Positions 28,799 through 46,871 of a DNA stretch of 64,000 nucleotides are shown here, piece by piece. A model generated the notes under the pieces. It was not told the origin of the DNA and did no database searches. It saw nothing but the letters and a program-made list of their open reading frames with translations. Origin of the DNA: an uncultured Collinsella sp. (GTDB lineage Bacteria > Actinomycetota > Coriobacteriia > Coriobacteriales > Coriobacteriaceae); contig CAUAJB010000001.1 of NCBI GenBank assembly GCA_958429225.1, positions 8,955 through 72,954 on the forward strand, in the 5' to 3' direction. The position numbers were made by a program, and so were the translations under genes. The stretch's first letter is position 1; each line of letters begins with the position of its first letter.

Positions 28799-28875
28799 GG
28801 CCCGTTCGTCTAGCGGTTTAGGACGCCGCCCTCTCAAGGCGGAGATCACCAGTTCGAATCTGGTACGGGCTACCA
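28799..28875 (+). tRNA. tRNA-Glu (anticodon CUC), identical second copy
   Basis: The 77 nt are identical to 28700-28776, separated from it by a 22-nt spacer. Confidence 0.9.
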
Positions 28876-31173: not shown

Positions 31174-32490
31174 TTATCCTTCCCACTCCAAATGGGAATC
31201 CTCCGATGCGTCTTCGCACGCTTGCATGACCTCGATACCATGCGAGCGTGCGAACTCGACGAGCTCTGCGTTGCGGGCGTTTATGGTGCCGAAGGCGGCG
31301 GGGCACACGATAAGGCGCGCGCAGTGGACGAGGAGCTCTTTGGCGCGGGCTATGGTTTTATCCCCGATCGGCTCGAAGGCGCGCTCGGCCACGCATTCCG
31401 TCGCCAGGTCGCGCGCGAGCTCGCAGTCGATGTCCCCTTCGTGCAGAACGCCCGCGTAGAATGCCTTGCCCTGCCGGATGAGCTGGCGAAACACAGCCGA
31501 CCCCGTACCTGCGCCGGCGATGACGAACGTGTGCGCATCGCCGTGCGGGCGCCCAATTTCCACGCTGCCGAAGCGCTCGTTGAAGGTGCCATGTTGAAGG
31601 CCGTAGAGCTTGCCAATCGTCTCGCGCGTGAATATGTCCTCGGGTGCGCCGGCGCGGAAGACCCGGCCGTCCTTCACGCAAATCACCTTGTCGGCGCTTT
31701 TCTGCGCGAGCTCGAGTTCGTGGATGGACATGATGACAGCCACATTCCGCGATTTCGCAAGGTGGCGAAGTATCCGCAGCAGGTCGATCTGGTAGCGGAT
31801 ATCGAGATACGACGTGGGCTCGTCGAGCACGAGCACGCGCGGATCCTGCGCGATGGCGCGTGCGAGCATGACGCGCTGGCGTTGCCCGTCGCTTATCTGC
31901 ATGAAGTCGCGCTCGGCGAGCTCTTCCACACGTGCGGTTTTCATGGCTTCATCGACCCGACTATGGTCGTCGGGCGAGAGTGTGCCCATTCGCCCGGTGT
32001 AGGGATGCCTTCCCGCCTCCACGATATCGCGGCAGGTGAGGAGCTCGGTCCGGGGGCGATCTGTCAGCATAACGGCAAGGTTCCTTGCGAACTCCGCCGT
32101 CTTCCATCGGGAAATCTCTCGCCCGTCGAGCTCGACCGCGCCGGCAAGCGGTGTCAGATGGCGTGTGATGGTTTTCAAGATGGTCGACTTGCCCGAGCCG
32201 TTCGGCCCGATGAGCGCCACGACGTCGCCCGCGCGAACCTTCAGGTCGACGCCTTCGACTACGACCTTCTTGTCGTAGCCCGCCGACAGGTCGCTTATGC
32301 GGAAAAGCGGCGCTCCGTCAGCCTGCGTTTCGACCGGGGTTTCGAGGTTCGGCTCCGCTCGGAGGAGGCGTTCCGCGCGCAGTTCCGCACGAGCCGAAAG
32401 TGCCTTCTGGCGCTTTCGTGCGAGCTCAGGACTGGCCAAGCATGGAATGTTCCCTCCGAGCGTTTTGGTCCGCGGCACGAATTCCCCCAT
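31174..32490 (-). CDS. ABC importer ATP-binding protein (FecE/BtuD-like) with N- and C-terminal extensions
   Basis: Walker A GPNGSGKST, signature SDGQRQR and Walker B LVLDEPT are present. The ATG directly abuts the permease stop (TAGATG). About 140 additional C-terminal residues follow the ABC domain. Confidence 0.85.
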   Translation of the reverse strand: MGEFVPRTKTLGGNIPCLASPELARKRQKALSARAELRAERLLRAEPNLETPVETQADGAPLFRISDLSAGYDKKVVVEGVDLKVRAGDVVALIGPNGSGKSTILKTITRHLTPLAGAVELDGREISRWKTAEFARNLAVMLTDRPRTELLTCRDIVEAGRHPYTGRMGTLSPDDHSRVDEAMKTARVEELAERDFMQISDGQRQRVMLARAIAQDPRVLVLDEPTSYLDIRYQIDLLRILRHLAKSRNVAVIMSIHELELAQKSADKVICVKDGRVFRAGAPEDIFTRETIGKLYGLQHGTFNERFGSVEIGRPHGDAHTFVIAGAGTGSAVFRQLIRQGKAFYAGVLHEGDIDCELARDLATECVAERAFEPIGDKTIARAKELLVHCARLIVCPAAFGTINARNAELVEFARSHGIEVMQACEDASEDSHLEWEG

Positions 32491-33531
32491 CTACCTCACC
32501 CGCTTCTTCAACATGAGTGCAATAACCACCGGCGCGCCGAAGATGGCGGTGACGGCGCTGATGGAAAGCTCGACGGGGGAGAACAGCGTGCGCGCGATCA
32601 AATCGCAGCCCGCGCAGAAGATGGCGCCTCCCAAGAAGCACGCAGGAATCACGCGGATGGGCTTCGACGACTTCAACGCCGACTTCACGAGATGCGGAAC
32701 CGCGATGCCTACGAACGACACCGGACCAGCGAACGCGGTCACGCAGGCAGAGAGCATGCTCGCTAGAAGGACGAGCACCACGCGGAAGCGTGCGACGTTC
32801 ACGCCGACGCTTTTCGCGTAGGCTTCTCCCAGCTGGAAGGCGGAAAGGGGCTTCGATATCGCGAATACGCATGCGCTCACGGTGATCACCACGACCGCGA
32901 TGACCGCGATGTCGTTCCAGCTCGAACCCGAGAAGCTACCCAAAGACCAGTTGTGCAGGTTCACGATGGACTGGTCGTCGGCGAAGGCGATGAGGAAGTT
33001 CGTCGCCGCCGAGCAGATGTATCCCACCATGACGCCCGCCACGATGAGCATGGCCATGGAACTTATGCGCCGTGCGATGAGGAGCACGAAGCCGATGGTG
33101 ATAAGCGAGCCCAGAAACGCTGCGGCCACCATGGCCGGCGAGGACATGGCCTGGTTCGCGTCCAGAAGTGCGATCATCGTAAGCGCGACGACGAACTTTG
33201 CGCCCGAGGAGACGCCCAAGATGAACGGGTCGGCGATGGGGTTGTTGAAAAACGTCTGCAGTAGGAACCCGGAAAGCGAAAGTGCCCCGCCGAGAAGCAC
33301 GGCTGAAAGCACGCGCGGCAGGCGAATCTCCCAGATGACCTGGCTTTCCATGGAATTGGCCGCGCCGCCCGAAAGGATGCCGGGGATGTGGTCTGCTGGC
33401 ACGAGCACGCTCCCGATGCACAGGTTGGCCCCGACGAGCACGATGAGGGCAACAGCGAGCAGCGCCGTCACGACGCGACACCGCGCGGCGCGCCCCGATT
33501 CGTCGTATGTCATGGAAAGTCGGCTTTTCAT
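32491..33531 (-). CDS. FecCD-family ABC permease (BtuC-like)
   Basis: The 346-aa polytopic protein carries LPRVLSAVLLGGALSLSGFLLQ and GPVSFVGIAVPHL, typical of iron-chelate/B12 permeases. Confidence 0.9.
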   Translation of the reverse strand: MKSRLSMTYDESGRAARCRVVTALLAVALIVLVGANLCIGSVLVPADHIPGILSGGAANSMESQVIWEIRLPRVLSAVLLGGALSLSGFLLQTFFNNPIADPFILGVSSGAKFVVALTMIALLDANQAMSSPAMVAAAFLGSLITIGFVLLIARRISSMAMLIVAGVMVGYICSAATNFLIAFADDQSIVNLHNWSLGSFSGSSWNDIAVIAVVVITVSACVFAISKPLSAFQLGEAYAKSVGVNVARFRVVLVLLASMLSACVTAFAGPVSFVGIAVPHLVKSALKSSKPIRVIPACFLGGAIFCAGCDLIARTLFSPVELSISAVTAIFGAPVVIALMLKKRVR

Positions 33532-33535
33532 GGTG

Positions 33536-35107
33536 CTAGCCGAGCTTCCTCAGATAATGGAAGTCGCTCGCGTCATCGCCGGTGAACGCCCCGTGCAGCT
33601 CGTCGATAATGTCGGCGGTAGAAGTCATCTGCTGGTACATGTCGGCGCTTGTGACCCAGACGTTGCCGTTCTTCACGGCTTTGAACTGCGACAATAGCGC
33701 GTTTTTGCCTACGAAGTCGTTCAAGGTGGCAACCGATTCGTCGATGGTGCCGTTGTAGACGATGATGTCGGCATCCTTCGCCGTCGCGTAGAAGCGCTCC
33801 ATTTCGAGCGTTACTGACGAACCTGACGTCGACGCCGTCTGCGCGTCATCGAGCGCGTAGCTGCCGCCTGCAAGCTCGATCATCTGCGCCACGTAGTCGC
33901 CCGCCCGCCTCGTGACGGCGGCCCCGTTCGAGTTAATGTAGAAATACGCCACGGTTTTACCTGACGACGCGAGCCCCGACGTTTGCTCGACGCGGGCCTT
34001 CTGCTCGTTGAACAGGTGCGCGGCCTCGTCTTCCTTGTCGAACAGGACGCCGAAAAGCTTAATCCACTCGACGCGCCCGAGTGCTTCGGGCTCGCTCGAC
34101 GACTGTTCGGTGAGCACGACGAGCCCGAGCTTCTGCAGCTTTTCCTTCACATCGGGCGTGTGGTTGATCATGGTGTTCTCGATGGCGAGCGTGCAGCCCG
34201 AGGCCGATATTCGCTCGTAGTCGGGCGCGCTGTACTTGCCGCCGTAGGCGATCGCCCCACTTTCGAGCGCGCTTTTGAAGCGCGCGACCGAGCAATCGTC
34301 GGCCTTCGTGCCCGACATTAAGATATTGTCGTTCGCATCGAGCGCGTCGACCAGGCACATCGTTGCCGACGACACGAGGTACACCTTGTCGGCGGGGCGC
34401 CTTATGACCGCGATGTCGGAGCTCAACCCATCAGGTACCTTCGCATCTTGCGGCACCACGAGGAAGCGCTCCCCGTTCGAAACGCAGATAAGCCGCAGGC
34501 CGCCTTCGTACTCGTCGACAGTGAAGTGCTTGGCGTATTCAAGCTGAAGCGCCCCCGTCGGCTCCCAGCCGCAGCCCAAATCGGCGTTGTGGAAGTCGGC
34601 CGCGGCGCTTGAAGCCGTTACCGCAGGGGAACCGCCGCTTGCATCGTCGCCCGATTTCTCCTTCATGGTGGATGAGTCGAAGTAGAGCGTGTAGTCGATG
34701 GTGTGCGGCGTCGACATGGCGACGGTCTCGGCCGACACGGCGATGTCCTCGTCGAGCGTGACGGGTATCTCGAATGTGGAGTTGCCGCCGTCGTTTACAG
34801 GCGCGTAGTCCACGCCGTCGACGGTCATTTTGTCGTAGTTCGAACTCAACCAGGTGATGGTCGCGGTGTAGGTGTCGCCATCCTTCACAATTGTGGTGGG
34901 TGAGGCGATGCTTGCGCGCCCTGACCCGCCGGAAAGCGAGACGCTCACAGTGTATTCCTGAGAGCCCGCCGTGCCACCGGTCGCGTTCGGGCTCGCACTG
35001 CACCCCGCGAAGGGAAGCGCGAACAGGGCGACGAGAACGCAGGCGATCGCGCGCACCGCGATGCTGCGACGCTTCCTGCTTTCCCCCTTGGGAAGAATCG
35101 ACCGCAT
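33536..35107 (-). CDS. Lipoprotein substrate-binding protein (BtuF/Peripla_BP_2-like) with an extra N-terminal domain
   Basis: It has a signal peptide with lipobox FAGC, then an extra domain of about 110 aa, then a class-III SBP region (KVYLVSSATMCLVDALDA, TVAYFYINSNG). Confidence 0.8.
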   Translation of the reverse strand: MRSILPKGESRKRRSIAVRAIACVLVALFALPFAGCSASPNATGGTAGSQEYTVSVSLSGGSGRASIASPTTIVKDGDTYTATITWLSSNYDKMTVDGVDYAPVNDGGNSTFEIPVTLDEDIAVSAETVAMSTPHTIDYTLYFDSSTMKEKSGDDASGGSPAVTASSAAADFHNADLGCGWEPTGALQLEYAKHFTVDEYEGGLRLICVSNGERFLVVPQDAKVPDGLSSDIAVIRRPADKVYLVSSATMCLVDALDANDNILMSGTKADDCSVARFKSALESGAIAYGGKYSAPDYERISASGCTLAIENTMINHTPDVKEKLQKLGLVVLTEQSSSEPEALGRVEWIKLFGVLFDKEDEAAHLFNEQKARVEQTSGLASSGKTVAYFYINSNGAAVTRRAGDYVAQMIELAGGSYALDDAQTASTSGSSVTLEMERFYATAKDADIIVYNGTIDESVATLNDFVGKNALLSQFKAVKNGNVWVTSADMYQQMTSTADIIDELHGAFTGDDASDFHYLRKLG

Positions 35108-35111
35108 GGCG

Positions 35112-35645
35112 TTACTTCAGTGCGTCGGCGCGCAGATCGACGCCGGCGGATTTGAACACGAGCGTGCGGTCGTACCACTGCTCTTTTCTAATACTCCACG
35201 CGGCGCAGGCGGTGTCCTCGTCGAGCGCTTCAACGGGTACGTCGTAGGTGTACTTGCCTTCCGCGTTTTCCACATAGGGGATGAAGTCGGCCTCGCTCGC
35301 GGCGGCAGCCTCGTCGCCCGTGCCCATGAAGAGCTTGCCGTAGCCCGTGCCGGAAAGTGTCATCACGCAGTGCATGGAGCCGTTTTCCACGATGAGCTGG
35401 GCGTCCACAATCCTGAACATGTTCGAGCTGGAATCTACGGTGATCGGATAGGTGCCGTCGGCCACCTTGTCGGCGGTGATGGGGGCAGCGCTTGCGCCCT
35501 CGGGCGCATCGGCCGCCTGTTCGGTCTTTTCCTGGGAATCGGCATCGCTTGCCTTTGCGTTGTCGATTGAATTTCCGCCGCAGCCGGCGAGCGAGAACGC
35601 GAAAAGCGCCGCCGACAGGGCGAAGGCGAGGGTTGTCTGCAACAT
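35112..35645 (-). CDS. Lipoprotein of unknown function (domain shared with the N-terminus of the adjacent SBP)
   Basis: Start is ATG 35645 (MLQTTLAFALSAALFAFSLAGCGG, lipobox LAGC). The 177-aa product has a low-complexity linker followed by a domain of about 110 aa. Confidence 0.7.
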   Translation of the reverse strand: MLQTTLAFALSAALFAFSLAGCGGNSIDNAKASDADSQEKTEQAADAPEGASAAPITADKVADGTYPITVDSSSNMFRIVDAQLIVENGSMHCVMTLSGTGYGKLFMGTGDEAAAASEADFIPYVENAEGKYTYDVPVEALDEDTACAAWSIRKEQWYDRTLVFKSAGVDLRADALK

Positions 35646-35789
35646 GGAGGGGTTCCTTTCAATCGCTTCGACCGCCCGCGCCGTGCGGTGGGCGGGCGGG
35701 ATGCGAATGCAACGGGCATGCGCCGTCGGTCGGGGAAGGCGCATGCCCGTTGCACGGGGACGCGACCGGCGCCCCCGTGCGCGGCGAGT

Positions 35790-36716
35790 TTACAGCTTGG
35801 CGATGGCGTCGTCCACGTGCGAGACGTAGATGTCGTCGACCGCGACGTTCTGTCCCAGACCCTGGAGCAGGCACGTCACTTCGAAGCCGGCGGCCACGAA
35901 CTTCGCAGCCCAGCTGTCGGGGTCGGTCTCGTCTGCCATGTCGTTGTTCGCGTGGTCGCCCGCGACCACCATGAACGGCGCGAGCACGGCCTTCTTGTAG
36001 CCTGCGGCGCTCGCGGCGGCGATAACATCCTCGCAGGTCGGTTCAGCCTCGACGGTGCCGACGAAGAACTGCGTCAAGCCCTCGTTCTTAAACACTTCCT
36101 GCATCTTGGCATAGTCGGCGTTGGAATCGGCTTCGGTGCCGTGGCCCATGAGGCACAGCGCCGTCTTGCCGTCGTCGAAGGACGCCATGTTCTCCTTAAT
36201 GGCTGCGGCCACCTTCTTGTAGTCGTCGTCGGAGGTGAGCAGCGGGTCGCCGAGCGAGATCTTATCGAACTTGTCGGCGTACTTGTCGAGCTCGTCTTTC
36301 ACGTCGGTGTATTCCAGGCCGCCCATGAGATGCGTCGGCTGCACGACGATTTCCTTCACGCCGTCTTCCACGCAGCGGTCGAGCGCCTCGGTCATGTTGT
36401 CGATCGTGATACCGTCGCGCTTCTTCAGCTTGTCGATGATGATCTGCGCGGTGAAGGCGCGGCGGATGTCGTAGTCCTGCCAGTACTTCTCGCGGATAGC
36501 GTCTTCGATGGCGCCGATGGTGATGTGGCGCGAGTCGTTGTAGCTCGTGCCGAAGCTCGTGACGAGGATGACCGGCTTCACGGCCTTCTCCTTTTCACTC
36601 GATTTCTCGGAACTCGTGGAGGTGTTGGAGCAGCCCGCGAGCGCGACTCCGGCGAGCGCGACGGCTCCGGTTGCTGCGGCGCCCATGAAGCCGCGGCGTG
36701 ACATCTGGTCGGACAT
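35790..36716 (-). CDS. cbiK: Sirohydrochlorin cobaltochelatase CbiK-like protein with Tat signal and lipobox
   Basis: Start is ATG 36716. The N-terminus has twin-arginine SRRGFMGAAA and lipobox LAGC. CbiK-family motifs SFGTSY, RAFT, MGHG and VAGDHANNDMA are present. Confidence 0.8.
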   Translation of the reverse strand: MSDQMSRRGFMGAAATGAVALAGVALAGCSNTSTSSEKSSEKEKAVKPVILVTSFGTSYNDSRHITIGAIEDAIREKYWQDYDIRRAFTAQIIIDKLKKRDGITIDNMTEALDRCVEDGVKEIVVQPTHLMGGLEYTDVKDELDKYADKFDKISLGDPLLTSDDDYKKVAAAIKENMASFDDGKTALCLMGHGTEADSNADYAKMQEVFKNEGLTQFFVGTVEAEPTCEDVIAAASAAGYKKAVLAPFMVVAGDHANNDMADETDPDSWAAKFVAAGFEVTCLLQGLGQNVAVDDIYVSHVDDAIAKL

Positions 36717-36729
36717 GGTTTTTCCTTTC

Positions 36730-36965
36730 CTCGGTTTGCCGGTCCCCCGGCGACAGTTGCTTGTCGGCACAAGCGAAAGAAAAGCGCACCCCTCGGGGTT
36801 CACAAGGAGCTAACGCCACGGCGATGCCGTGAGGAAAAGGCGAAGCAGTCTGGCTTGGGGCGCGAGGCGGTTCGCCCGCGCGTCCTATACAGTAATGTCC
36901 CTTGCCCAGGATTCCCACCTGGTTCCCTCCGCAAGCCAGCGCGGGCTGTGCGGGCGCCGCGCCGG
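36730..36965 (-). promoter_or_regulatory. Cobalamin riboswitch (leader of the cbiK-like/ABC importer operon)
   Basis: The minus strand reads GGAGGGAACCAGGUGGGAAUCCUGG...ACUGUA. This core is closed by helix GCCCGCGC/GCGCGGGC and followed by a B12-box-like AAGCCAGACUGC. A CCUUUUCCUC segment is complementary to the SD GAGGAAAGG. Confidence 0.7.
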
Positions 36966-37174
36966 TCATTTCCTTTTATCCGATTGTCATATGCTCGTTG
37001 CCGAAACTTTTACTATGATAGTGGGCACTTGTGAACGTGTCAAAGCCAGGGCGGGCGGCATTGCGCCTCCTGCCTGCGTATTTGCGCCGATTGCCGCCGC
37101 AGGCGCCGTGTTTTGTCCGCTGCGCGAATGGCGGCGTAAACGGTTGCGATGAGAAACGGGAAGGGAAGGCTCGG

Positions 37175-37966
37175 ATGATTCATATCGTTGGCGCAGGCTC
37201 GGGCGCCGCCGACCTTATCACGCTGCGCGGGGCGCGCCTTCTGCGCGCGGCCGACGTGGTCGTTTGGGCGGGGAGCCTTGTGAACCCCGAGCTGCTCGCC
37301 GAGTGCAAGGAATCCTGCGTCGTCTACGACAGCGCGCACATGACCTTGGAGGAAGTGCTCGACGTGATGTGCGCGGCGGATGCACGGGGCGAGGAAGTGG
37401 TGCGCCTGCACACGGGCGACCCGTGCCTGTACGGCGCCATCCAGGAGCAGATGGACGCACTCGACGCGCGCGGCGTGGACTACGAGGTGGTGCCCGGCGT
37501 GTCGAGCTTTTGCGGTGCCGCGGCGGCGCTTCGCCAGGAATACACGCTGCCGGGAATCAGCCAGTCGGTCGTGATCACGCGGCTTTCCGGGCGCACCCCC
37601 ATGCCCGCGGGCGAGGGCATGCGCACCATGGCGGAAAGCGGCTCGACTATGGTCATCTTCTTGAGCTCGGGTATGCTCGCCGAGCTTTCCGCCGAGCTTT
37701 TGGCCGCGGGCCGCAGCTCCGACGAGCCGGCGGCGCTCGTGTACAAGGCGACCTGGCCTGAGGAGCGCGTGGTGCGCTGCACAGTGGGCACGCTCGCCGA
37801 TGCGGGTGCGCGAGAGGGCATCGACCGCACGGCGCTCGTGGTGGTGGGCCGCGTGCTCGGAGCTCGCGGTGGGCTTGCGCACGACGGCGCGCAAGCGGAG
37901 TCGTACGAGCGCAGCAAGCTTTACGACCCTTCGTTTGCCACGGGGTATCGGAAGGCGAGCAGCTAG
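37175..37966 (+). CDS. cbiF: Cobalt-precorrin-4 C11-methyltransferase
   Basis: Start is ATG 37175 (MIHIVGAGSGAADLITLRG). It has the TP-methylase fold, with HTGDPCLYGA. Confidence 0.9.
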   Translation: MIHIVGAGSGAADLITLRGARLLRAADVVVWAGSLVNPELLAECKESCVVYDSAHMTLEEVLDVMCAADARGEEVVRLHTGDPCLYGAIQEQMDALDARGVDYEVVPGVSSFCGAAAALRQEYTLPGISQSVVITRLSGRTPMPAGEGMRTMAESGSTMVIFLSSGMLAELSAELLAAGRSSDEPAALVYKATWPEERVVRCTVGTLADAGAREGIDRTALVVVGRVLGARGGLAHDGAQAESYERSKLYDPSFATGYRKASS

Positions 37967-37967
37967 C

Positions 37968-39152
37968 GTGGCCTTCGAGCACTACATATATACCGGGACG
38001 ACCCGCCTGCGCTGCGGCTATACCACGGGGAGCTGCGCCACGCTCGCGGCGAAGGCGGCCTGCGAGATGCTCTTGTCACGAAAGCCCGTCGGCCACGTGT
38101 CGATCGTCACCCCCGGCGGGCTGCCCGTCGAGACGGACGTGGTCGATGCATGCATCGGCGAGGGGTGCGCCCAGTGCGCCGTGCAAAAGGACGCAGGCGA
38201 CGACGCCGATGTGACCGACGGCGTGCTCGTGTACGCGCGCGTGGAACATGCGGGGTCGGGCACGGGCGCTGCGGGCAGCAAGGGCGTGCCCACGCGCGAA
38301 TCGGAAGTTTCCGTCGATGGCGGCGTGGGCGTGGGGCGCGTGACGTTGCCCGGGCTCGAGCAGCCAGTGGGGGCGGCCGCCATCAACGCGACGCCGCGCG
38401 CGATGATCACTTCGGCGGTGCGCGAGGTGTGCGCCGCGCACGGCTTTTCTGGAAATATTGCTGTGACGATTTCGGTACCCGAGGGTGTTGCCCTTGCCGA
38501 AAAGACCTTCAACCCGCACCTGGGGATAGAGGGCGGCATCTCCATCCTGGGCACGACGGGCATCGTCGAGCCGCGCAGCCTCGCTGCCTTGCGCGACAGC
38601 ATCGAGCTCGAGATCCGGCAGCATGCGGCTATGGGGCGGCGCGGAGTCGTGCTCACGCCCGGCAACTACGGCGAGCAGTTCATCTCGGGGCATTTTCACC
38701 TAAACGGAGCGCCGGTGGTCTTCATCTCCAACTTTGTGGGCGATGCGATTGATTGCTGCGTTCGCGAGGGATTTACCAATGTCCTTCTTGTGGGACACAT
38801 CGGCAAGCTGGTGAAGGTCGCTGGCGGCATCATGGACACCCATTCGCGTACCGCCGACTGCCGCGCGGAGATTCTGGCCGCCCACGCGGCCTTGGCCGGC
38901 GCGGGCGCGAAGACCGTGCGCGAGATCATGTCTTCGGTCACGACCACGGCGGCGCTCGAGGTAATCGAGGCCGCCGGCGTGGGGGACGCTGCGCGCGCCT
39001 CGCTCGCTGCGGCAACCGAGGACAGGTTGCGCCGCCGCGCGGCGGGCGCATGCGATATCGCCGCGGTCGTGTTCGACGCCGGGCGCCGCGAGCTTTTCCG
39101 TACGTCGGGCGCCGATGCAGTTATCGGGGAATTGGGGGTGACGTATGAGTAA
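37968..39152 (+). CDS. cbiD: Cobalt-precorrin-5B C1-methyltransferase
   Basis: The GTG start lies 1 nt after the cbiF stop. The CbiD signature GYTTGSCATLAAKAA is present. Confidence 0.9.
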   Translation: MAFEHYIYTGTTRLRCGYTTGSCATLAAKAACEMLLSRKPVGHVSIVTPGGLPVETDVVDACIGEGCAQCAVQKDAGDDADVTDGVLVYARVEHAGSGTGAAGSKGVPTRESEVSVDGGVGVGRVTLPGLEQPVGAAAINATPRAMITSAVREVCAAHGFSGNIAVTISVPEGVALAEKTFNPHLGIEGGISILGTTGIVEPRSLAALRDSIELEIRQHAAMGRRGVVLTPGNYGEQFISGHFHLNGAPVVFISNFVGDAIDCCVREGFTNVLLVGHIGKLVKVAGGIMDTHSRTADCRAEILAAHAALAGAGAKTVREIMSSVTTTAALEVIEAAGVGDAARASLAAATEDRLRRRAAGACDIAAVVFDAGRRELFRTSGADAVIGELGVTYE

Positions 39153-39834
39153 AGGCGTGCTGTACGGGGTGGGAACGGGGCCTGGCGACCCCGAGCTGCT
39201 CACGATCAAGGCCGTCCGCACAATCGAATCGTGTCCGGTCATCGCCGCGCCGCAGACGGCGGACGGGGCCATGGTCGCGCTCGATATCGTGCGCGGCGCC
39301 GTCGACCTTACAGGCAAGACGGTGATCCCCGTGCGGTTCTCGATGACGCGCGACGCCGAGCGCCGCGCGGCCGAGCATGCCTCGCTTGTTCGCGAGCTTG
39401 TCGCGCACCTGGATGCGGCCCGCGACGTCGCGCTGCTGAACCTGGGGGACCCGAGCATCTACGCCACCTTCCAGCGCATAGCGCCCGACGTGCGCGCCCG
39501 CGGGTTCGAGGCGCGTGCCATTCCCGGCGTGCCGAGCTTCTGCGCGGTCGCCGCGGCGCTCGAGCGCGACCTCACGCCCGAGATGTCGTCGCCTCTGCAT
39601 ATCGTGCCCGGCGGCTACGACGACGTGCGCCGCGCAATCGGCTGGCCGGGGACGAAGGTGATCATGAAGGCGCGCCGTTCGCTTGCGGACACGAAGCGCA
39701 TCCTTCGCGAGGAGGGCGCCTTCGACGGTGCCGAGCTCGTAGAGGACTGTGGGCTTCCGGGCGAGCGCGTGTACCGCTCGCTCGACGATGTGCCCGATCG
39801 GGGCAGCTACTTCTCGACGATGGTGGTGCGCTAG
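39145..39834 (+). CDS. cbiL: Cobalt-precorrin-2 C20-methyltransferase
   Basis: N-terminus is LYGVGTGPGDPELLTIKAV. It overlaps cbiD by 8 nt. Confidence 0.9.
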   Translation: MSKGVLYGVGTGPGDPELLTIKAVRTIESCPVIAAPQTADGAMVALDIVRGAVDLTGKTVIPVRFSMTRDAERRAAEHASLVRELVAHLDAARDVALLNLGDPSIYATFQRIAPDVRARGFEARAIPGVPSFCAVAAALERDLTPEMSSPLHIVPGGYDDVRRAIGWPGTKVIMKARRSLADTKRILREEGAFDGAELVEDCGLPGERVYRSLDDVPDRGSYFSTMVVR

Positions 39835-40968
39835 ATGAGGGTTTCCTGCATAGCGTTCACTGAGAGGGGGTATGCGTTGGCGGAGCGCACCGCACGCGCG
39901 CTTTCCGATTGCGCGCAGACAGGTGAAGATGATCCTGGCTGGGACGTTTCCGTTTCACGCGGGTTCGGCGAGGGGAAGGCCGACTTGCGCGCATGGACGG
40001 CGCTCGCGTGGGAAGCGTCGGACGCGCTTCTGTTCGTGGGCGCGGCGGGCATCGCCGTGCGGGCGATCGCGCCGCATGTCGCCTCGAAGGCAACCGATTC
40101 CGCGGTTGTGGCGATCGACGAGGCGGGGCGCTTTGCCGTCCCGCTTTTGTCGGGGCATTTGGGCGGCGCGAACGAGCTTGCGCAAACTGTGGCACGCGCG
40201 GCAGGGGCCATCCCCGTCATCACCACGGCGACCGACGTCCGCGGCGTGTGGGCGGTGGATACGTGGGCGCGCCGTGCGGGTCTCGCCGTTTCGAATCCCG
40301 AAGCCATCAAGCGAGTGTCGGCGCGGCTGCTTTCGGGCGGGCGCGTGGCGCTCTATTCCGACATGCCGATTTCGGGACAGCCGCCTAAGGGGGTTGACAT
40401 TGCGTCAAACCGCGCTCGGGCCGATATCGTCGTGTCGCCGTTCGCTGGCGCGAATGCAGGTGCGTCCGTTCGCGCGGCGGAGACAACGGGCGAGGTCGTG
40501 CCCGCCGGTGAGACGGGGAAGCCGGCGGGCGTGCGGGCGCAGGCGCCTGCGCCCGAGCCGCTTTGCCTTGTCGTGCCCTGCATCGTTGCGGGCATAGGGT
40601 GCCGTCGCGGTGCGTGCGCCGAAGCGATTGGGGAGGCGTTTCTTCTCGCGTGCGGGCAGGCGGGCATCTCGCCTTCGGCCGTGCGCGAGGCGGCGACGAT
40701 CGACGTGAAGGCGCACGAGGAGGGTCTGCTCGCCTTCTGCCGCGCGCGCAATATCCCGCTTGCGACGTATTCCGCAGAGGAGTTGTCGCAGGTCGAAGGC
40801 AGCGTTTCGCCATCTGATTTCGTGCGCGCGACGGTGGGGGTCGACAACGTGTGCGAGCGCGCGGCGCTCGCGGACGGGGGCAAACTTATCTTCCCAAAGC
40901 TCGCTCACGGCGGCGTGACCGTCGCGTTTTCCAAGGTAACTATCGAACTTTCGTTTAAGGAGCGGTGA
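39835..40968 (+). CDS. cbiG: Cobalt-precorrin-5A hydrolase
   Basis: CbiG N-, middle and C-terminal regions are recognisable (VAGIGCRRG ... IDVKAHEEGL). Confidence 0.85.
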   Translation: MRVSCIAFTERGYALAERTARALSDCAQTGEDDPGWDVSVSRGFGEGKADLRAWTALAWEASDALLFVGAAGIAVRAIAPHVASKATDSAVVAIDEAGRFAVPLLSGHLGGANELAQTVARAAGAIPVITTATDVRGVWAVDTWARRAGLAVSNPEAIKRVSARLLSGGRVALYSDMPISGQPPKGVDIASNRARADIVVSPFAGANAGASVRAAETTGEVVPAGETGKPAGVRAQAPAPEPLCLVVPCIVAGIGCRRGACAEAIGEAFLLACGQAGISPSAVREAATIDVKAHEEGLLAFCRARNIPLATYSAEELSQVEGSVSPSDFVRATVGVDNVCERAALADGGKLIFPKLAHGGVTVAFSKVTIELSFKER

Positions 40969-41711
40969 TGGGAAAGCTCTTCGTGGTGGGGATCGGCCCG
41001 GGCGGCCCCGACGGCATGACGATTGCGGCTCGGCGCGCGCTCGAGGCGGCCGACACCGTTGTGGGGTACACGAAATACGTGGAGCTCGCGCTCGCCGCCG
41101 TGCCCGACGTGGCGCATCTCGCGACGCCGATGATGCACGAGGTCGAACGGTGCCGCCTGGCGCTTTCGCGTGCGCAGAGCGGAGAAGCCGTGGCGCTCGT
41201 GTGCAGCGGTGACGCGGGCGTGTACGGCATGGCGAGCCCCGTGCTGGAGCTTGCGGAGGACTACCCCGATGTAGACGTGGAAGTTATCGCCGGGGCCACC
41301 GCGGCTCAAAGCGGGTCGGCGGTGCTCGGCGCCCCGCTTGCCCACGACTTCGCGGTCGTGTCGCTCTCCGACTTGCTCACGCCGTGGGAGGTCATCGAGC
41401 GCAGGCTCGCCGCCGTGGCGATCGCCGACTTCTGCATCTGTTTGTACAACCCGCGCAGCAGAAAGCGCGCCGACAGGCTCTCGCGCGCGGCGAAGATTAT
41501 GCTCGAATGGAAGGCCCCCGACACGCTCTGCGGTTGGGTACGCAACATCGGGCGCGAGGGGCAGCAGTCGGGCATGTGCAGGCTCTCCGAGCTGGGGGAG
41601 CTCGATGCAGACATGTTCACCACCGTGTTCGTCGGCAACGCGGGCACGAAGCGCGTAGGCGGCCGTATGGTCACGCCGCGCGGGTATCGGGAGATTCCAT
41701 GCGAAAGGTAA
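40968..41711 (+). CDS. cbiH: Cobalt-precorrin-3B C17-methyltransferase
   Basis: ATG 40968 lies 5 nt after RBS AAGGAG (a GTG at 40965 is also possible). N-terminus is VVGIGPGGPDGMTIAARRALEAADTVVGYTKY. Confidence 0.9.
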   Translation: MGKLFVVGIGPGGPDGMTIAARRALEAADTVVGYTKYVELALAAVPDVAHLATPMMHEVERCRLALSRAQSGEAVALVCSGDAGVYGMASPVLELAEDYPDVDVEVIAGATAAQSGSAVLGAPLAHDFAVVSLSDLLTPWEVIERRLAAVAIADFCICLYNPRSRKRADRLSRAAKIMLEWKAPDTLCGWVRNIGREGQQSGMCRLSELGELDADMFTTVFVGNAGTKRVGGRMVTPRGYREIPCER

Positions 41712-43048
41712 CGATTATCGGGGCGGGGCCCGGAAACGCCGACTTGCTCTCGCGCGCGGCGCTCGACGCGATCGACATCGCCGACGTGGTCATCGGCGCT
41801 CATCGCGCGCTTGTTGGCATCGACGTGCCGCCCGACGTGGTGAGATGCGAGCTCGTGAAGACGGCGGACATCGTCGCCGCGCTCACCGATGCGGCGTCGT
41901 GGCAGCGCGCCGTGGTCGTGATGACGGGCGATGTGGGGCTGTTCAGCGGCGCGCGCCGCCTGGCGGAGGCAATCTCCGGCGACGCGCAGGTGGACGTGCG
42001 CATCATTCCCGGCATAAGCTCAGCGTCGTATCTCGCCGCGTGCCTCGCGCGTCCATGGCAGGATTGGCGCTTCGCGAGCGCTCACGGCGTGGCGTGCGAC
42101 ATCGTGGCCGAGGCCGAGCGCGCAGGTGAGCTCTTCCTCGTCACGTCGGGCGGGGAAGACCCCTCGCGGCTTTCGGGCGAGCTTGTGCAGGCGGGCTTCG
42201 GGGACGCGCGCGTGACGGTGGCCGAGCGCCTGTCGTACCCCGACGAGCGTATCACCTGCGCGACCGCAAGTGAAATCGCAGGTCAGACGTTCGACGACTT
42301 GAACGTGATGCTTATCGATTTCGCAGGTGGCGCCGGGTCGCCTGCGGGCTCTAGCGCAGCCTCCGAGGCGCCGGCCGGCGCGTCTGCATCCGCGGCGGCT
42401 TCTTCCGCGGCGGACCCTGCGGGCGCATCCCGCGCCGCGAGCTCCCGCTGGCCGTACGCTTCCTCGGGCATTCCCGACGAGCTCTTCATCCGCGGCGAAG
42501 TTCCCATGACCAAGCAGGAGGTGCGCGCCGTCGCGCTCGCGAAGCTGCGCCTTACCGCGACCGACACCGTGTGGGACGTCGGCGCCGGCACGGGGAGCGT
42601 GTCGATCGAGGCGGCGCTCGTCGCGCGAGCGGGCTCGGTATGGGCGGTGGAGCGCAACGCGGCCGGCGTGCGGCTCATCCGAGAGAACGCGGATGCATTC
42701 GGGTGCGGCAACGTGCATGCGGTCCCCGGTGTCGCCCCCGATGCGCTCGCGAAACTGCCCGTCCCCGACGCCGTGTTCGTCGGCGGGAGTGCGTGCGAGC
42801 TTCCCTCCATCGTGGAGGCGGCGCTCGAGAAGAACTCGCAGGTTCGCCTGTGCGTGCCATGCGTCACCGTTGAGACGCTCACCGAGGCGTGCGCGCTCCT
42901 CTCGGGTTCGCGCTTTAAGGGGTTCGAGGCGTGCCAGGTGTCGGCCGCCCGCGCCGAGGCTGTAGGCTCGCACCATCTTATGAAGGCGCAAAACCCCGTG
43001 TTCCTCGTCAGCGCGCGTGGTGCAGGTGGGGAAGGCGGCGCCCGGTGA
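41699..43048 (+). CDS. cbiET: Fused cobalt-precorrin-7 C5-methyltransferase / cobalt-precorrin-6B C15-methyltransferase (decarboxylating)
   Basis: The CbiE part (IIGAGPGNADLLSRAAL) and the CbiT SAM-methyltransferase part (VWDVGAGTGSVSIEAA) are joined by an Ala/Ser/Gly linker. Confidence 0.85.
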   Translation: MRKVTIIGAGPGNADLLSRAALDAIDIADVVIGAHRALVGIDVPPDVVRCELVKTADIVAALTDAASWQRAVVVMTGDVGLFSGARRLAEAISGDAQVDVRIIPGISSASYLAACLARPWQDWRFASAHGVACDIVAEAERAGELFLVTSGGEDPSRLSGELVQAGFGDARVTVAERLSYPDERITCATASEIAGQTFDDLNVMLIDFAGGAGSPAGSSAASEAPAGASASAAASSAADPAGASRAASSRWPYASSGIPDELFIRGEVPMTKQEVRAVALAKLRLTATDTVWDVGAGTGSVSIEAALVARAGSVWAVERNAAGVRLIRENADAFGCGNVHAVPGVAPDALAKLPVPDAVFVGGSACELPSIVEAALEKNSQVRLCVPCVTVETLTEACALLSGSRFKGFEACQVSAARAEAVGSHHLMKAQNPVFLVSARGAGGEGGAR

Positions 43049-44427
43049 GCACGTCCATTCCGCGCTTCATGGTCGCTGCGCCCTCGAGCGGGAGCGGCAA
43101 GACGGTCGTAACGTGCGCGCTCCTGCGCGCGCTCGCGCGCCGCGGCCTTGCATGCGCGGCCTTCAAATGCGGCCCCGACTACATTGACCCGCTCTTTCAT
43201 CGCCGCGTCGTGGGTACGCGCTCGGGCAACTTAGACGGCTTCTTCACCGACGCTCCGACGCTGCGCGCCCTGCTCGCACGCGGCGCCGCGGGCGCGGATG
43301 TCGCGGTGCTCGAGGGGGTCATGGGCTTCTACGACGGCATGGCGCCCGGCGTGGCCGACGCGAGCAGCTACCAGGTTGCGCGCGACACGGAAACGCCGGT
43401 CGTTTTAGTGGTGAACGGGCGCGGGGCGTCTTTATCGCTCGCCGCCGTAATCCGCGGCATCGCCGAGTTCCTGCCTTGTGCGAACGTGCGCGGCGTCGTG
43501 CTGAACAAGACGGGCGCCGCTGCCTGCGCCTACGCGGCGCCTGCGATCGAGAAGCACACGGGCGTCGCGGTTTTGGGTAATATCCCCGCCGACGAGGCGT
43601 TCTCGCTCGAAAGCCGGCATCTGGGGCTTGTGACCGCCGACGAGGTCAAGCAGCTCTCCGCGCGCATCGGCAAGATGGCCGAGCTGGTGGAAAAGAGCGT
43701 CGACGTCGATCGCTTGCTCGAAATAGCGGCGACGGCACCCGATATCCGCGAGGAACCTTACCGGTTGGAGCCGATCGCGGGAGCGCGGCCCATCGTCGCC
43801 GTCGCGCGTGACGAGGCGTTCTCGTTCTACTACGAGGAGAACCTGCGCGCGCTCGAGGACCTGGGTTGCGAGCTGGCCTTTTTCAGCCCCCTGTGTGATA
43901 GCGAGTTGCCCCGGGGGACAAGCGCCCTCTATCTGGGAGGCGGCTACCCGGAGCTCCATGCGCGGCAGCTCTCCGAGAACGCGCCGATGCGCGAGGCGGT
44001 GCGGCGCGCGGTGGAATCCGGCATGCCGACGGTCGCCGAATGCGGTGGGTTTCTGTACCTGCAGCGCGAAATCGCCGATAGCGAGGGGCGGCGCTGGCCT
44101 GTTGCGGGCGCCCTTGAGGGAGCAAGCGAGAACGGGGGAAGGCTGTCCCATTTCGGGTACGTGGAGCTCACTTCCCAACGCGACGGGCTCTACGGGCCGC
44201 GCGGCACACGCATCCGCGCGCACGAGTTCCACTACTGGCAGTCCACCTGCCCGGGCGGCGACTTCTGGGCGCAGAAGCCCCGGCGCGACAAGGGCTGGCC
44301 GTGCATGACGACCACCCCGTCCCTGGTTGCGGGCTTCCCGCATGTGTACTATCCTGCGAACCCCGACGTTGCGCGCGCGTTCGCGTCTGCCACAGCGTCG
44401 TTCGCAGAGAGGAGACGGCATGGCTGA
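43045..44427 (+). CDS. cbiA: Cobyrinate a,c-diamide synthase
   Basis: The GTG start overlaps the cbiET stop. SGSGKTVVTCALL and FKCGPDYIDP are present, with a GATase-like C-terminal half. Confidence 0.9.
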   Translation: MSTSIPRFMVAAPSSGSGKTVVTCALLRALARRGLACAAFKCGPDYIDPLFHRRVVGTRSGNLDGFFTDAPTLRALLARGAAGADVAVLEGVMGFYDGMAPGVADASSYQVARDTETPVVLVVNGRGASLSLAAVIRGIAEFLPCANVRGVVLNKTGAAACAYAAPAIEKHTGVAVLGNIPADEAFSLESRHLGLVTADEVKQLSARIGKMAELVEKSVDVDRLLEIAATAPDIREEPYRLEPIAGARPIVAVARDEAFSFYYEENLRALEDLGCELAFFSPLCDSELPRGTSALYLGGGYPELHARQLSENAPMREAVRRAVESGMPTVAECGGFLYLQREIADSEGRRWPVAGALEGASENGGRLSHFGYVELTSQRDGLYGPRGTRIRAHEFHYWQSTCPGGDFWAQKPRRDKGWPCMTTTPSLVAGFPHVYYPANPDVARAFASATASFAERRRHG

Positions 44428-45562
44428 AGCAACCGAAACCGCGCTTGCCTGCATCCGTGAGGAAGTCGAGCGCGCGTTCTCGTCGGCGCCGGGTGCCGTG
44501 CTCGAAGCCGCGCTCTCCCGGATCGCGCCCGCAGACGAGTGCGCCCGCGCCGCCGCGTACGCCGCGTGGGACTCTATCGCGCACCCCTTGGGGGGATTGG
44601 GCGACTTTGAAGACGCCGTCGCGTGTATCGCCGCAGCTCAGGGGAGCGCCGAGGTGGCCGAGTTTCCCCGTGCACTCGCGGTATTCTTCTCCGACAACGG
44701 GGTCGTTGCCGAAGGCGTGTCGCAAAGCGGGCAAGACGTGACGCGAGCCGTCGCGCGCAACATGTGCGAGGGGGCCACGAGCGCCTGCCGCATGGCGGCG
44801 TTCGCGGGTGCCGAGGTCGTGCCCGTCGACGTGGGTATGGCCCGGGGCATAGAAGACACGCGCATGGTGCGCGCGAACGTGCGGCGGGGGAGCGGCAACA
44901 TCGCGCACGGCTCCGCTATGTCTCGCGATGGGGCCGTTCGCGCGATCGAGGTCGGAATTGCCGTCGCGTGCGGACTTGCCCGCGCCGGCGTGCGCCTTTT
45001 CGCCGCGGGCGAGATGGGCATCGGCAACACGACCACCTCGGCGGCGGTGGCCGCAGTGCTCATCCGGGCGGACGCGCGGAGCCTCGTCGGGCGCGGCGCG
45101 GGGCTCTCGGACGCCTCGCTCGCGCGCAAGCGCGACGTGGTCGAGCGCGCTATCGACGCGAACTCGCCCGATCCCGCCGACCCGATCGACGTGCTCTCGA
45201 AGGTCGGCGGCTTCGACATCGCGGCGATGTGCGGCTTCTACCTGGGGGCCGCGGCCTCGAAGGCGCCGGCGCTCCTCGACGGGGTCATATCATGCACGGC
45301 GGCCCTGTGCGCGGCGCGCCTGTGCCCTAACGCCTTGGGCTACCTCGTGGGCACCCACGTATCAAGCGAACCGGCAAGCCAGGAGCTCCTTCGCGAGCTC
45401 GGCATAAAGGCACCCCTCGACGCAGGCATGCACTTGGGCGAGGGCGCGGGCGCCATGGCGTATCTGCCCCTTCTGGATTCGGCGCTGCGCGTGTACCGGG
45501 ATGGGAAGACGTTCACGGCGACTGGCATGGCTGCTTACGAGCATTTCGAGGCCGGGAAATGA
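44420..45562 (+). CDS. cobT: Nicotinate-nucleotide--dimethylbenzimidazole phosphoribosyltransferase
   Basis: Motifs GEMGIGNTTTSAAV and LGEGAGA are present. Confidence 0.9.
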   Translation: MAEATETALACIREEVERAFSSAPGAVLEAALSRIAPADECARAAAYAAWDSIAHPLGGLGDFEDAVACIAAAQGSAEVAEFPRALAVFFSDNGVVAEGVSQSGQDVTRAVARNMCEGATSACRMAAFAGAEVVPVDVGMARGIEDTRMVRANVRRGSGNIAHGSAMSRDGAVRAIEVGIAVACGLARAGVRLFAAGEMGIGNTTTSAAVAAVLIRADARSLVGRGAGLSDASLARKRDVVERAIDANSPDPADPIDVLSKVGGFDIAAMCGFYLGAAASKAPALLDGVISCTAALCAARLCPNALGYLVGTHVSSEPASQELLRELGIKAPLDAGMHLGEGAGAMAYLPLLDSALRVYRDGKTFTATGMAAYEHFEAGK

Positions 45563-46107
45563 CGGTGACGCTCGTCATCGGCGCCGCCGCGAGCGGCAAG
45601 AGCGCCTACGCCGAGTCCCTGTGCCTTGGGCACGACGGCCCCCGCGTGTACCTGGCAACGATGGAGCCCTTCGGGGAAGAGGGCGCCCGCCGCATCGCGC
45701 GCCATCGGGCGCTGCGCGAGGGCAAGGGGTTTTCCACCCTCGAGCGCACGCGTGACGTGGGCGCCGCAGTGCCCGGGCTTCCGCGCGGCTGCACGCTTCT
45801 TTTGGAGGACGTGGGCAACCTGGTTGCGAACGAGCTCTTCGCGGAAGGCGGCTTGTCCCCACTTGACCCCGACGCTGCGGCGCGCGAGGTGCTCGGAGGC
45901 ATCGAACGGCTCGCTCAGGCCGCTGAGTATACGGTGGTGGTCACCGTCGACGTGTTCGCCGATGGGATGCGCTACGATGAGGGGACCGAGGCATGGAGGC
46001 GCGCGCTCGCGCGCGTGAACGCGGGCGTGGCGGCGTTGGCCGACCGCGCAGTCGAAGTGGTATGCGGGATTCCCGTGTGGATGAAAGGCGAAGGACCTAC
46101 AAGGTGA
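45559..46107 (+). CDS. cobU: Adenosylcobinamide kinase / adenosylcobinamide-phosphate guanylyltransferase
   Basis: P-loop GAAASGKS is present, along with a His-containing region RRIARHRALR. Confidence 0.85.
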   Translation: MTVTLVIGAAASGKSAYAESLCLGHDGPRVYLATMEPFGEEGARRIARHRALREGKGFSTLERTRDVGAAVPGLPRGCTLLLEDVGNLVANELFAEGGLSPLDPDAAAREVLGGIERLAQAAEYTVVVTVDVFADGMRYDEGTEAWRRALARVNAGVAALADRAVEVVCGIPVWMKGEGPTR

Positions 46108-46871
46108 AGATAGCAGAGGCAATCGGCGCGGCGTTCGGAACGTTCTCGCGCATCCCCGTCCCGAAATCGGCCTGGACCGATTTCGGATCAACCCATGCGC
46201 TTGCCGCGTTTCCCCTGGTGGGCGTTGCGGAAGGCTTCCTCATGACGGCGTGGGGGCACGTGGCGAACCTGCTCGGCGTGCCCGCGACCATCGTCGCGGC
46301 CGTGCTCGTGGCGTTGCCTGTGGCGGTGACGGGAGGCATTCACCTAGACGGGCTCTGCGACACCTCCGATGCGCTTGCAAGTTGGGCCCCGCGCGAGCGA
46401 AAGCTCGAGATCATGCACGACCCGCGGGCGGGCGCCTTTGGGGTCATTGGTGTTGTTGTGTACCTTATTCTGCAGTTTTCCCTTTTCACCGCGCTGCCGC
46501 TTACGGCGGGGGTGTTCCTCGCGCTTCTGTGCTCGCTCGTGTTCTCCCGCGCGCTTTCGGGGCTTGCCGTTGAATGCTGGCCTGCCGCGCGGGCTGACGG
46601 CATGGCCGCGGGGCTCTCGCCTGCGAAGAAGCGCGCGGCGATCGTCGTGCCGCTTTGCGCTTTCGCTGCGGCTTCGGCTGCAGGGATGGTCGCGTGCGCT
46701 CAGGCCGTCGGCGCCCTTATGGCGGTGGCGGGGCTTTTGGTGCTCGCGTGGTACCGCCATGTTGCCCTGTCCCGCTTCGGTGGGGTGACGGGGGATTTGG
46801 CCGGATGGTTTCTGCAATGGGCCGAGCTCGCGATGCTTGCCATGCTAGTGGCGGGGGGCATGCTCCTATGA
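46104..46871 (+). CDS. cobS: Adenosylcobinamide-GDP ribazoletransferase (cobalamin synthase)
   Basis: The GTG start overlaps the cobU stop. It is a polytopic membrane protein carrying FSRIPVP and GGIHLDGLCDTSDA. Confidence 0.85.
   Translation: MKIAEAIGAAFGTFSRIPVPKSAWTDFGSTHALAAFPLVGVAEGFLMTAWGHVANLLGVPATIVAAVLVALPVAVTGGIHLDGLCDTSDALASWAPRERKLEIMHDPRAGAFGVIGVVVYLILQFSLFTALPLTAGVFLALLCSLVFSRALSGLAVECWPAARADGMAAGLSPAKKRAAIVVPLCAFAAASAAGMVACAQAVGALMAVAGLLVLAWYRHVALSRFGGVTGDLAGWFLQWAELAMLAMLVAGGMLL

Follow-up and report, generated by a model that had tools for sequence, protein, structure and literature searches.

An exported CbiK-type chelatase heads a transporter operon behind a probable cobalamin riboswitch in Collinsella: a likely role in tetrapyrrole uptake and an apparently incidental internal start

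A 64,000-nucleotide stretch of the genome of an uncultured Collinsella sp. (assembly GCA_958429225.1, contig CAUAJB010000001.1, positions 8,955 to 72,954; hereafter the window), an organism belonging to the Collinsella aerofaciens complex, encodes a CbiK-type chelatase in the form of an exported lipoprotein. A previous analysis of this DNA, here termed the sequence-only reading, proposed that the single gene serves two locations by dual initiation, the full-length product being exported and a shorter one, begun at an internal Shine-Dalgarno (SD) sequence and GTG, remaining in the cytoplasm to supply an adjacent cobalamin pathway. That proposal overlooked the genomic context of the gene: cbiK heads a transporter operon that lies behind a cobalamin-riboswitch-like leader. 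Because of this position, the exported form can be assigned a pathway-linked job without any cytoplasmic isoform. We consider it probable that CbiK acts outside the cytoplasm, in a B12-regulated relay for tetrapyrrole uptake, and that the internal start is incidental.

The cbiK open reading frame (ORF) extends on the minus strand from an ATG at 36716 to a stop codon at 35790, and its product begins with MSDQMSRRGFMGAAATGAVALAGVALAGCS. Signal peptides were judged by inspection, a twin-arginine translocation (Tat) lipoprotein being recognized by an S/T-R-R-x-F-L-K-like motif together with a lipobox of the form [LVI][ASTVI][GAS]C; the window protein has both, as SRRGFMG and LAGC, with the two arginine codons at 36698-36693 and the codon of the lipobox cysteine, Cys29, at 36632-36630. 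Every one of the 13 distinct signal peptides known from the Collinsella clade retains both the arginine pair and this cysteine. A 17-residue linker of Ser, Thr, Glu and Lys separates the lipobox from a complete CbiK domain, which matches Pfam PF06180 at 265.1 bits (cutoff 26.2, E 8e-79) over profile positions 3-261 of 262. Among proteins of solved structure, the sequence matches Salmonella enterica CbiK (PDB 1QGO, 4e-44), FetB of Porphyromonas gingivalis (9B86, 2e-37) and CbiKP of Desulfovibrio vulgaris (2XVX, 1e-32). In the 1QGO alignment His192, Glu223 and His255 correspond to the catalytic His145, Glu175 and His207 of the S. enterica enzyme, and this triad is invariant in the family alignment of the exported CbiK clade. 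In these respects the sequence-only reading, which had described a Tat lipoprotein with intact chelatase motifs and catalytic His positions, was correct. Because the signal is of the twin-arginine lipoprotein type, CbiK is predicted to work at the outer face of the membrane. The NCBIfam equivalog model for CbiK (NF047852) gives the protein 225.4 bits, under its cutoff of 400, which by the NCBI criterion classes it as a member of the family and not as an equivalog of the cytoplasmic enzyme.

Downstream of cbiK, the first gene of its operon, are four genes on the same strand for two lipoproteins, a permease and an ATPase. By sequence profile, the first lipoprotein (NEAT-A) falls short of recognition as a NEAT domain (PF05031, 13.2 bits against a threshold of 32.8, E 0.12), and the NEAT-B module of the second has no match to the same profile; a few of the Firmicute homologs of these modules do carry a precomputed PF05031 match. 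An AlphaFold2 model of NEAT-A, built on 30 homologs, has a core with predicted local distance difference test (pLDDT) values above 95, and its best 27 Foldseek matches in the PDB are all NEAT domains (IsdA, IsdH, IsdC, IsdB, Hal and Shp; template-modelling scores TMt 0.5-0.6). The model of NEAT-B, which comprises roughly 100 N-terminal residues, has a pLDDT of 94, and its best 50 matches are likewise all NEAT domains, IsdX1 among them with TMq 0.79 and E 6e-5. As modelled, both partner modules are NEAT beta-sandwich folds. Each contains an invariant tyrosine (Y158 of NEAT-A, Y90 of the 103-residue NEAT-B segment) with no conserved tyrosine four residues on, where the haem-ligating YxxxY motif on the last strands of NEAT domains would have one. 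Firmicutes carry both modules joined in a single protein of about 290 residues.

The domain to which NEAT-B is fused is a binding protein of the Peripla_BP_2 family (Pfam, 5e-32) with a weak match to IsdE. Its nearest solved relative by sequence is a B12-binding protein (5YSC, E 1e-3), a match too weak for a substrate to be assigned from the PDB search. The best NCBIfam matches of the permease and of the ATPase are to BtuC (209 bits) and to a corrinoid ABC (ATP-binding cassette) transporter ATPase (252 bits), respectively, both under the model cutoffs. Because it combines two predicted NEAT folds with binding-protein and importer genes, the operon looks like a tetrapyrrole relay of the Isd type with a chelatase placed in the lead.

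Upstream of cbiK lies a leader that is probably a minimal cobalamin riboswitch homologous to full-score members of the class. At gathering thresholds, Rfam reports a riboswitch neither in the window nor at six orthologous loci, and the leader was recognized through the E-value mode of Rfam and by comparison with relatives, among which the orthologous leader of C. tanakaei reaches 27.6 bits against the cobalamin riboswitch model RF00174. The assignment is made because of shared sequence and pairing, not because of the Rfam threshold. The Collinsella leaders share with full-score Firmicute riboswitches in the same position an invariant GGGAA..GGTG..AA..CC..ACTGT core and a B12-box, and differ from them mainly by the lack of a peripheral insertion of roughly 50 nucleotides. 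The six Collinsella-clade leaders are conserved, with compensatory changes in 11 of the 43 predicted pairs. On the 3' side of the leader (36717-36790, minus strand), the segment GCCTTTTCCTC is almost the complement of GAGGAAAGGAA, the region of cbiK that binds the ribosome, which suggests that translation of cbiK may be controlled through sequestration of its SD sequence.

The same arrangement recurs well beyond this species. A metagenome scan based on a CbiK alignment yielded 65 diverged loci with 51-72% identity. Six distant orthologs of the Collinsella clade (L081-L086), obtained separately with their neighbourhoods, all have the cassette genes in the order seen in the window. Of the 47 metagenome loci whose sequence extends far enough downstream, 46 have NEAT-A directly after cbiK, and in 29 of 30 the order is NEAT-A, NEAT-B, binding domain, permease. 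A signal peptide and lipobox were found in 58 of 63 diverged CbiKs, 54 of these being of the general secretory (Sec) type and four carrying an arginine pair. RF00174 matches of 52-120 bits lie on the same strand just upstream of the cassette in 27 of 30 metagenome loci tested and also in the Firmicute-type loci L087 and L088 (29 of 32 in all); of the three loci without such a match, two have cbiK immediately behind cbiJ in a cbi operon. Genes for cbi functions adjoin the cassette in at least 18 diverged loci, several of which have the order cbiB-P-C-D-G-H-J followed by the exported cbiK. This is the slot that cbiK occupies in the Salmonella operon, whose order we take to be cbiJ-K-L. The cassette is common to Collinsella and many gut Firmicutes, stands almost always behind a cobalamin riboswitch, and is often part of a cbi operon.

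In the window itself, cbiK is divergent from a cob operon with the gene content, in order, cbiF-D-L-G-H-ET-A, cobT-U-S-C, cbiB, cobD, cbiP, an adenosyltransferase gene, cbiC and cbiJ; cbiL, at 39145-39834 on the plus strand, scores 187.7 against TIGR01467, above the cutoff of 163. Profile scans found no chelatase, no genes for precorrin-2 synthesis and no cobalt transporter in this operon, and among the window ORFs scanned there was no further CbiK or CbiX and no hem, cobA, sirC or cbiMNQO gene. The claim of the sequence-only reading that the 17-gene operon has no chelatase of its own, and that CbiK is the only one at the cob locus, is thus upheld by the scans of window ORFs. A CbiX fused to another cob protein was also considered and rejected: what look like N-terminal extensions of cbiJ, of the adenosyltransferase and of cobC come from ORFs called too long, which overlap the genes before them. 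Chelatase-free cob genes also adjoin cbiK in five of the six distant orthologs, the sixth (L086) being a 3.3-kb contig with cassette genes only.

CbiL, which acts on the product of CbiK, is the first step of the pathway that the window encodes. The class of 'precorrin-2' salvagers of tetrapyrrole precursors has been held to include C. aerofaciens ATCC 25986, Collinsella sp. 4_8_47FAA and C. tanakaei (Shelton 2019, PMC6461909, Suppl. Table 10), their genomes lacking aminolevulinic acid (ALA) synthase and the synthases of porphobilinogen (PBG), hydroxymethylbilane (HMB), uroporphyrinogen III and precorrin-2 (PMC6461909); the description of C. aerofaciens as a precorrin-2 auxotroph is repeated in a review. 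According to this published classification of C. aerofaciens, the host is unable to make the tetrapyrrole precursor.

We propose the following sequence of events. When B12 is low, the operon would be expressed, and the surface chelatase would insert cobalt into a scavenged, metal-free precursor of the sirohydrochlorin or precorrin-2 type. The NEAT modules would then relay the metallated product to the binding protein, and after import this cobalt-tetrapyrrole would join the cytoplasmic pathway at CbiL. NEAT modules are known to hold metallated porphyrins by means of an axial ligand. If chelation takes place outside the cell and is followed by import, neither a cytoplasmic chelatase nor a separate cobalt transporter nor a second isoform of CbiK is needed. 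An extracytoplasmic role in a B12-regulated uptake relay seems to us the probable function; the particular substrate, with cobalt inserted externally into sirohydrochlorin or precorrin-2 and the pathway resumed at CbiL after import, is put forward tentatively, as a possibility that may well prove wrong.

Several observations weigh against this interpretation. With 16 bits against RF00174 (at 36970-36860), the window leader stays under the gathering threshold of 31.5. Haem is the known ligand of NEAT domains, and the two characterized exported CbiK homologs have been tied to haem, protoporphyrin IX (PPIX) or iron and not to corrin synthesis. In one low-GC Firmicute (L107, 7001-8465), a CbiK of this family without a signal peptide is encoded in a cbi operon, so that the chelatase domain can evidently function in the cytoplasm as well. 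A cytoplasmic CbiK, CbiX or CobNST could be encoded elsewhere in the genome, the search having covered the window. The proposal assumes a supply of sirohydrochlorin or precorrin-2 in the gut, and among carriers of the cassette the documented loss of precursor synthesis concerns Collinsella hosts.

The internal start deserves separate consideration. AAGGAG, a 6-nucleotide spacer and a GTG are present at codon 46 exactly as the sequence-only reading described, and initiation there would give a 263-residue product of classical CbiK size and N-terminus, its second residue, a Lys, aligning with residue 2 of the 264-residue 1QGO chain. An SD sequence and a start placed exactly at a domain boundary are uncommon a priori: the 41 window genes examined, with 15,904 codons, contain 13 cases of a 6-mer SD before a start in frame, several of these being the true starts of over-long ORFs. 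In the window, GAG encodes 79% of Glu, AAG 82% of Lys and GTG 38% of Val, and as a null expectation the codons of the linker peptide SSEKSSEKEKAVKP were resampled synonymously according to this usage. A GTG with a 6-mer SD arose in 24% of the resamplings of SSEKSSEKEKAVKP, and one with a 5-mer SD in 31%. The linker peptide therefore largely dictates the pattern, as the earlier caveat that Glu and Lys codons give SD-like strings by chance had anticipated, and there is no nucleotide-level signal at codon 46 beyond the amino acid sequence.

Comparison with relatives points the same way. Among 80 loci from Collinsella genomes, all at least 99% identical to the window CbiK, the site is intact in 78; one (L012) has a synonymous GTG to GTA change and another (L060) a GAG to GAA change within the SD sequence. 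Of the six distant orthologs, only L084 (87% identity) retains both elements, its boundary reading AAGGAGGAG-AAAGCC-GTG. The Val start is replaced by Ala (GCC) in L085 (86%) and is encoded by GTC in L086 (76%), and no in-frame start is present between the lipobox cysteine and the first strand in L081 (C. tanakaei, 66%; ATG, GTG and TTG considered), L082 (73%) or L083 (69%). The internal start is accordingly absent from five of seven Collinsella-clade lineages, and in the wider exported-CbiK family an in-frame start lies within eight codons of the first strand at 5 of 55 distinct boundaries, with an SD sequence at 2 of 55. The conservation at the linker/domain boundary that the sequence-only reading had suggested checking is thus not found. 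Because most orthologs and family boundaries are without it, the internal start is lineage-specific and not required by the system; it looks like a by-product of a Lys- and Glu-rich linker written in high-GC codons and not like a designed second start.

Two 263-residue database entries that resemble the short form are probably artefacts. One (P0099) was called as a gene on a chimeric contig (L089) of about 1.4x (1.36x) coverage with unrelated sequence upstream, and was rejected as a natural cytoplasmic form; it is a reverse mosaic (L089 1-100), with a Collinsella-type N-terminal half and a Firmicute-type C-terminal half. The other (P0077) lies on an 887-nucleotide contig.

Four other accounts of the locus have to be weighed against an uptake relay with an external chelatase. 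Dual initiation, with the codon-46 product serving the cob pathway in the cytoplasm, draws on the good SD sequence and spacing at the boundary, on the likeness of the product to S. enterica CbiK, on the persistence of the site in the near-identical loci and in L084, on the lack of a second chelatase at the locus, and on the fact that gene callers choose the codon-46 start when the upstream sequence is missing. Against these stand the natural GTA variant, the lineages without a start (including one with Ala for Val at 86% identity and one with a GTC Val), the rarity of an SD sequence with a start at family boundaries and the frequency with which synonymous recoding produces the pattern. The proposal is thus unsupported, and we regard it as very unlikely. 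One polypeptide might instead serve both sides without internal initiation if the Tat precursor were active before export. Tat substrates fold before export, and the arginine pair is strictly kept in the Collinsella clade, whose cob operon has no other chelatase. This idea appears highly improbable in view of the 54 of 63 family members that have Sec-type signals within the same cassette, which in at least 18 diverged loci stands beside cbi genes; with mostly Sec signals in the Firmicute cassettes, activity before export would be no general solution.

The remaining two accounts accept an extracytoplasmic CbiK and assign it another cargo. In one, the operon acquires haem or iron: haem or porphyrins would be bound or stripped of metal by the surface chelatase, uptake of haem or iron would fall to the NEAT modules and ABC importer, and the chelatase for B12 synthesis would be encoded elsewhere. 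The NEAT-fold partners, whose solved relatives are all haem binders, the Isd-like layout with its weak IsdE match, and the resemblance of the window CbiK to CbiKP and to FetB, which metallates PPIX, are what this account would lead one to expect. It is nevertheless quite unlikely, given the cobalamin riboswitches before 29 of 32 cassettes, the location of cassettes inside cbi operons and the report that the P. gingivalis iht operon does not respond to iron or haem limitation. Furthermore, His96 of CbiKP, which we take to be an inter-subunit haem ligand, aligns with a Thr in the window CbiK. In the other account, the importer is a BtuFCD-type system for cobamides or cobinamide, and the CbiK-like and NEAT lipoproteins serve in non-catalytic capture, like BtuG and BtuH of Bacteroides. 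Riboswitch control, the best matches of permease and ATPase to BtuC and corrinoid ATPase models, and the B12-binding protein as nearest solved, if weak, relative of the binding domain would all fit. A mere binder would not be expected to keep the catalytic His, Glu and His invariant throughout the exported clade, the gene fills the cbiK slot of otherwise chelatase-free cbi operons, and the CbiK cleft (1QGO, 2XWP) suits planar early tetrapyrroles and not complete cobamides. Corrinoid capture is on this evidence unlikely, and external chelation within a B12-regulated tetrapyrrole relay is the function that we prefer.

If the more tentative idea also holds, namely that cobalt is inserted into environmental sirohydrochlorin or precorrin-2 outside the cell and the product feeds CbiL after import, the cassette would represent a previously undescribed salvage route for B12 synthesis. 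Comparative genomics has revealed that many host-associated bacteria keep the late B12 pathway and cannot make its tetrapyrrole precursor. The source of this precursor is the missing step in such bacteria, and a riboswitch-run chelatase/NEAT/ABC cassette at the cbiK slot is a concrete candidate for it. The route would explain how orphan cob pathways are fed in precorrin-2 auxotrophs, Collinsella among them and P. gingivalis possibly too, why a cytoplasmic chelatase is missing and why a cobalt transporter is dispensable. NEAT domains would gain a cargo other than haem, and the exported CbiK paralogs, which until now have been considered in connection with haem and iron, would move at least in part into B12 metabolism. 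Collinsella is among the commonest genera of the human gut, where B12 and its precursors are traded among microbes. In annotation, exported cbiK genes are not to be equated with those of ordinary cytoplasmic cobaltochelatases, and the internal GTG should not be marked as the start of a second product.

Table 1. Positions in the window of the cbiK operon, its signals and the neighbouring cob operon
Feature	Position	Strand	Basis
ABC ATPase with C-terminal extension	31174..32490	-	Pfam ABC_tran
FecCD/BtuC-type permease, type II ABC importer	32491..33531	-	Pfam FecCD 8e-81
523-residue lipoprotein, NEAT-B (~34655-34963) fused to Peripla_BP_2 (~33644-34375)	33536..35107	-	
NEAT-A, 177-residue Sec-type lipoprotein, lipobox SLAGC	35112..35645	-	NEAT-like fold
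cbiK, 308 residues, Tat-type lipoprotein precursor of class II (CbiK-type) chelatase	35790..36716	-	Pfam CbiK
Internal site in cbiK: AAGGAG (36593-36588), 6-nt spacer AAGGCC, GTG codon 46 (36581-36579)	36579..36593	-	read from sequence
Signal peptide core of cbiK: SRRGF (codons 6-10) to lipobox LAGC (codons 26-29)	36630..36701	-	read from sequence
cbiK 5' leader, probable minimal cobalamin riboswitch without peripheral P6 extension	36830..36985	-	
17-gene cob operon, divergent from cbiK	37031..53464	+	profile matches

A number of further features were recorded in the window and in the related loci. The true start of the importer ATPase is probably internal, near codon 55-60; its orthologs are 371-388 residues long and carry the C-terminal domain PF27219 (MJ0874), which is unusual for ATPases of the BtuD/FecE type. 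In the cob operon, a 43-residue match to the C-terminal part of CobU (PF02283, E 1.8e-6) lies at about 47096-47224 on the plus strand, between cobS and the phosphatase domain of cobC in the ORF 46655..47869, and may be a remnant or a fused fragment. Two adjacent tRNA genes on the plus strand (28700-28773 and 28799-28872) have identical Rfam scores of 62.3 bits, which suggests a tandem duplicate. The other window ORFs scanned are unrelated to tetrapyrrole metabolism and concern mostly housekeeping, transport and the cell envelope.

Variations on the cassette were also seen among the Firmicutes. In L107, cbiK begins with a TTG at the first strand, two codons after a stop. The next gene encodes a NEAT-like protein that has both a signal peptide and a membrane anchor at its C-terminus, and an ABC importer is missing. 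Some Firmicute surface CbiKs have tandem chelatase domains (L087, 9438-11272; L168, 7001-8611), the frame in L087 being broken between the two domains, possibly through an assembly error. Firmicute members (L105-L169) have an acidic motif, ENY(E/D)TGDASLD(N/D)xRNQDEIGExE, directly before the chelatase domain, which the Collinsella clade lacks. One Firmicute cassette (L128, 1131-2646) has three c-di-GMP-I riboswitches upstream of it in a stretch of 1.5 kb, and L087 has a Fe_dep_repress gene upstream. Finally, mosaic CbiKs occur on many metagenome contigs. Those of one type (P0035-P0073) combine a Firmicute-type N-terminus with a C-terminus identical to that of Collinsella; they were treated as assembly chimeras or recombinants and not used as evidence. 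The junction in these mosaics is at RRAFTAQIIID. In L088 it is at 10512, inside cbiK, the sequence downstream of it being 97-98% identical to window positions 36466..31353 and that upstream unrelated. The mosaic CbiKs, which have low coverage, are either recurrent assembly chimeras or products of real recombination between phyla.

Exported CbiK paralogs as such are already known, and the window protein, with its N-terminal export signal and FecCD-type importer genes alongside, falls with those of the CbiKP and IhtB/FetB type. Like CbiKP of D. vulgaris (PDB 2XVX, 2XVY and 2XVZ), it is an exported paralog with intact chelatase residues and a BtuCDF-type importer in the neighbourhood. In D. vulgaris, the gene forms a cluster with cbiL and btuCDF that stands behind a B12 element (PMC545781). 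CbiKP differs in being a soluble periplasmic protein of a Gram-negative host, in having a Sec signal, and in having no known NEAT partners. D. vulgaris is also said to possess a cytoplasmic CbiK together with a full precursor pathway. IhtB/FetB of P. gingivalis (PDB 9B86) is likewise a surface lipoprotein homologous to CbiK whose gene accompanies those of a binding protein, FecCD permease and ATPase, and it has PPIX chelatase activity (PMC13065792). Unlike the window protein, it is situated at an outer membrane and accompanied by a TonB-dependent receptor, and it has been studied as a chelatase or de-chelatase of haem and PPIX (Mn, Fe); in the literature examined, no link of this protein to a riboswitch or to NEAT domains is reported. 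P. gingivalis itself lacks precorrin-2 synthesis and keeps the later cob pathway, which has reportedly been called an 'enigma'.

With the cytoplasmic sirohydrochlorin cobaltochelatase of S. enterica (1QGO, 2XWP), its best solved match, the window CbiK shares catalytic residues and domain length; the Salmonella enzyme has no signal peptide, and its gene is followed by the cobalt transporter genes cbiMNQO, not by NEAT and ABC importer genes. The Isd haem relay of Firmicutes (IsdE, IsdF) offers a parallel for the remainder of the operon, as it also combines surface NEAT folds with a Peripla_BP_2 lipoprotein and a FecCD permease. In contrast to Isd, the NEAT modules of the window fall under the Pfam threshold and are lipoproteins or fusions to a binding protein instead of being sortase-anchored, and a cobalamin riboswitch, a probable one in the window, governs the system, at whose head stands a chelatase. 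A limited literature search found no described system that unites NEAT domains, a cobalamin riboswitch and CbiK. The Gram-positive Tat or Sec lipoprotein form of the chelatase, its pairing with NEAT modules, and near-universal riboswitch control across a large clade of gut bacteria appear to be the new elements that this cassette adds to the known exported CbiK systems.

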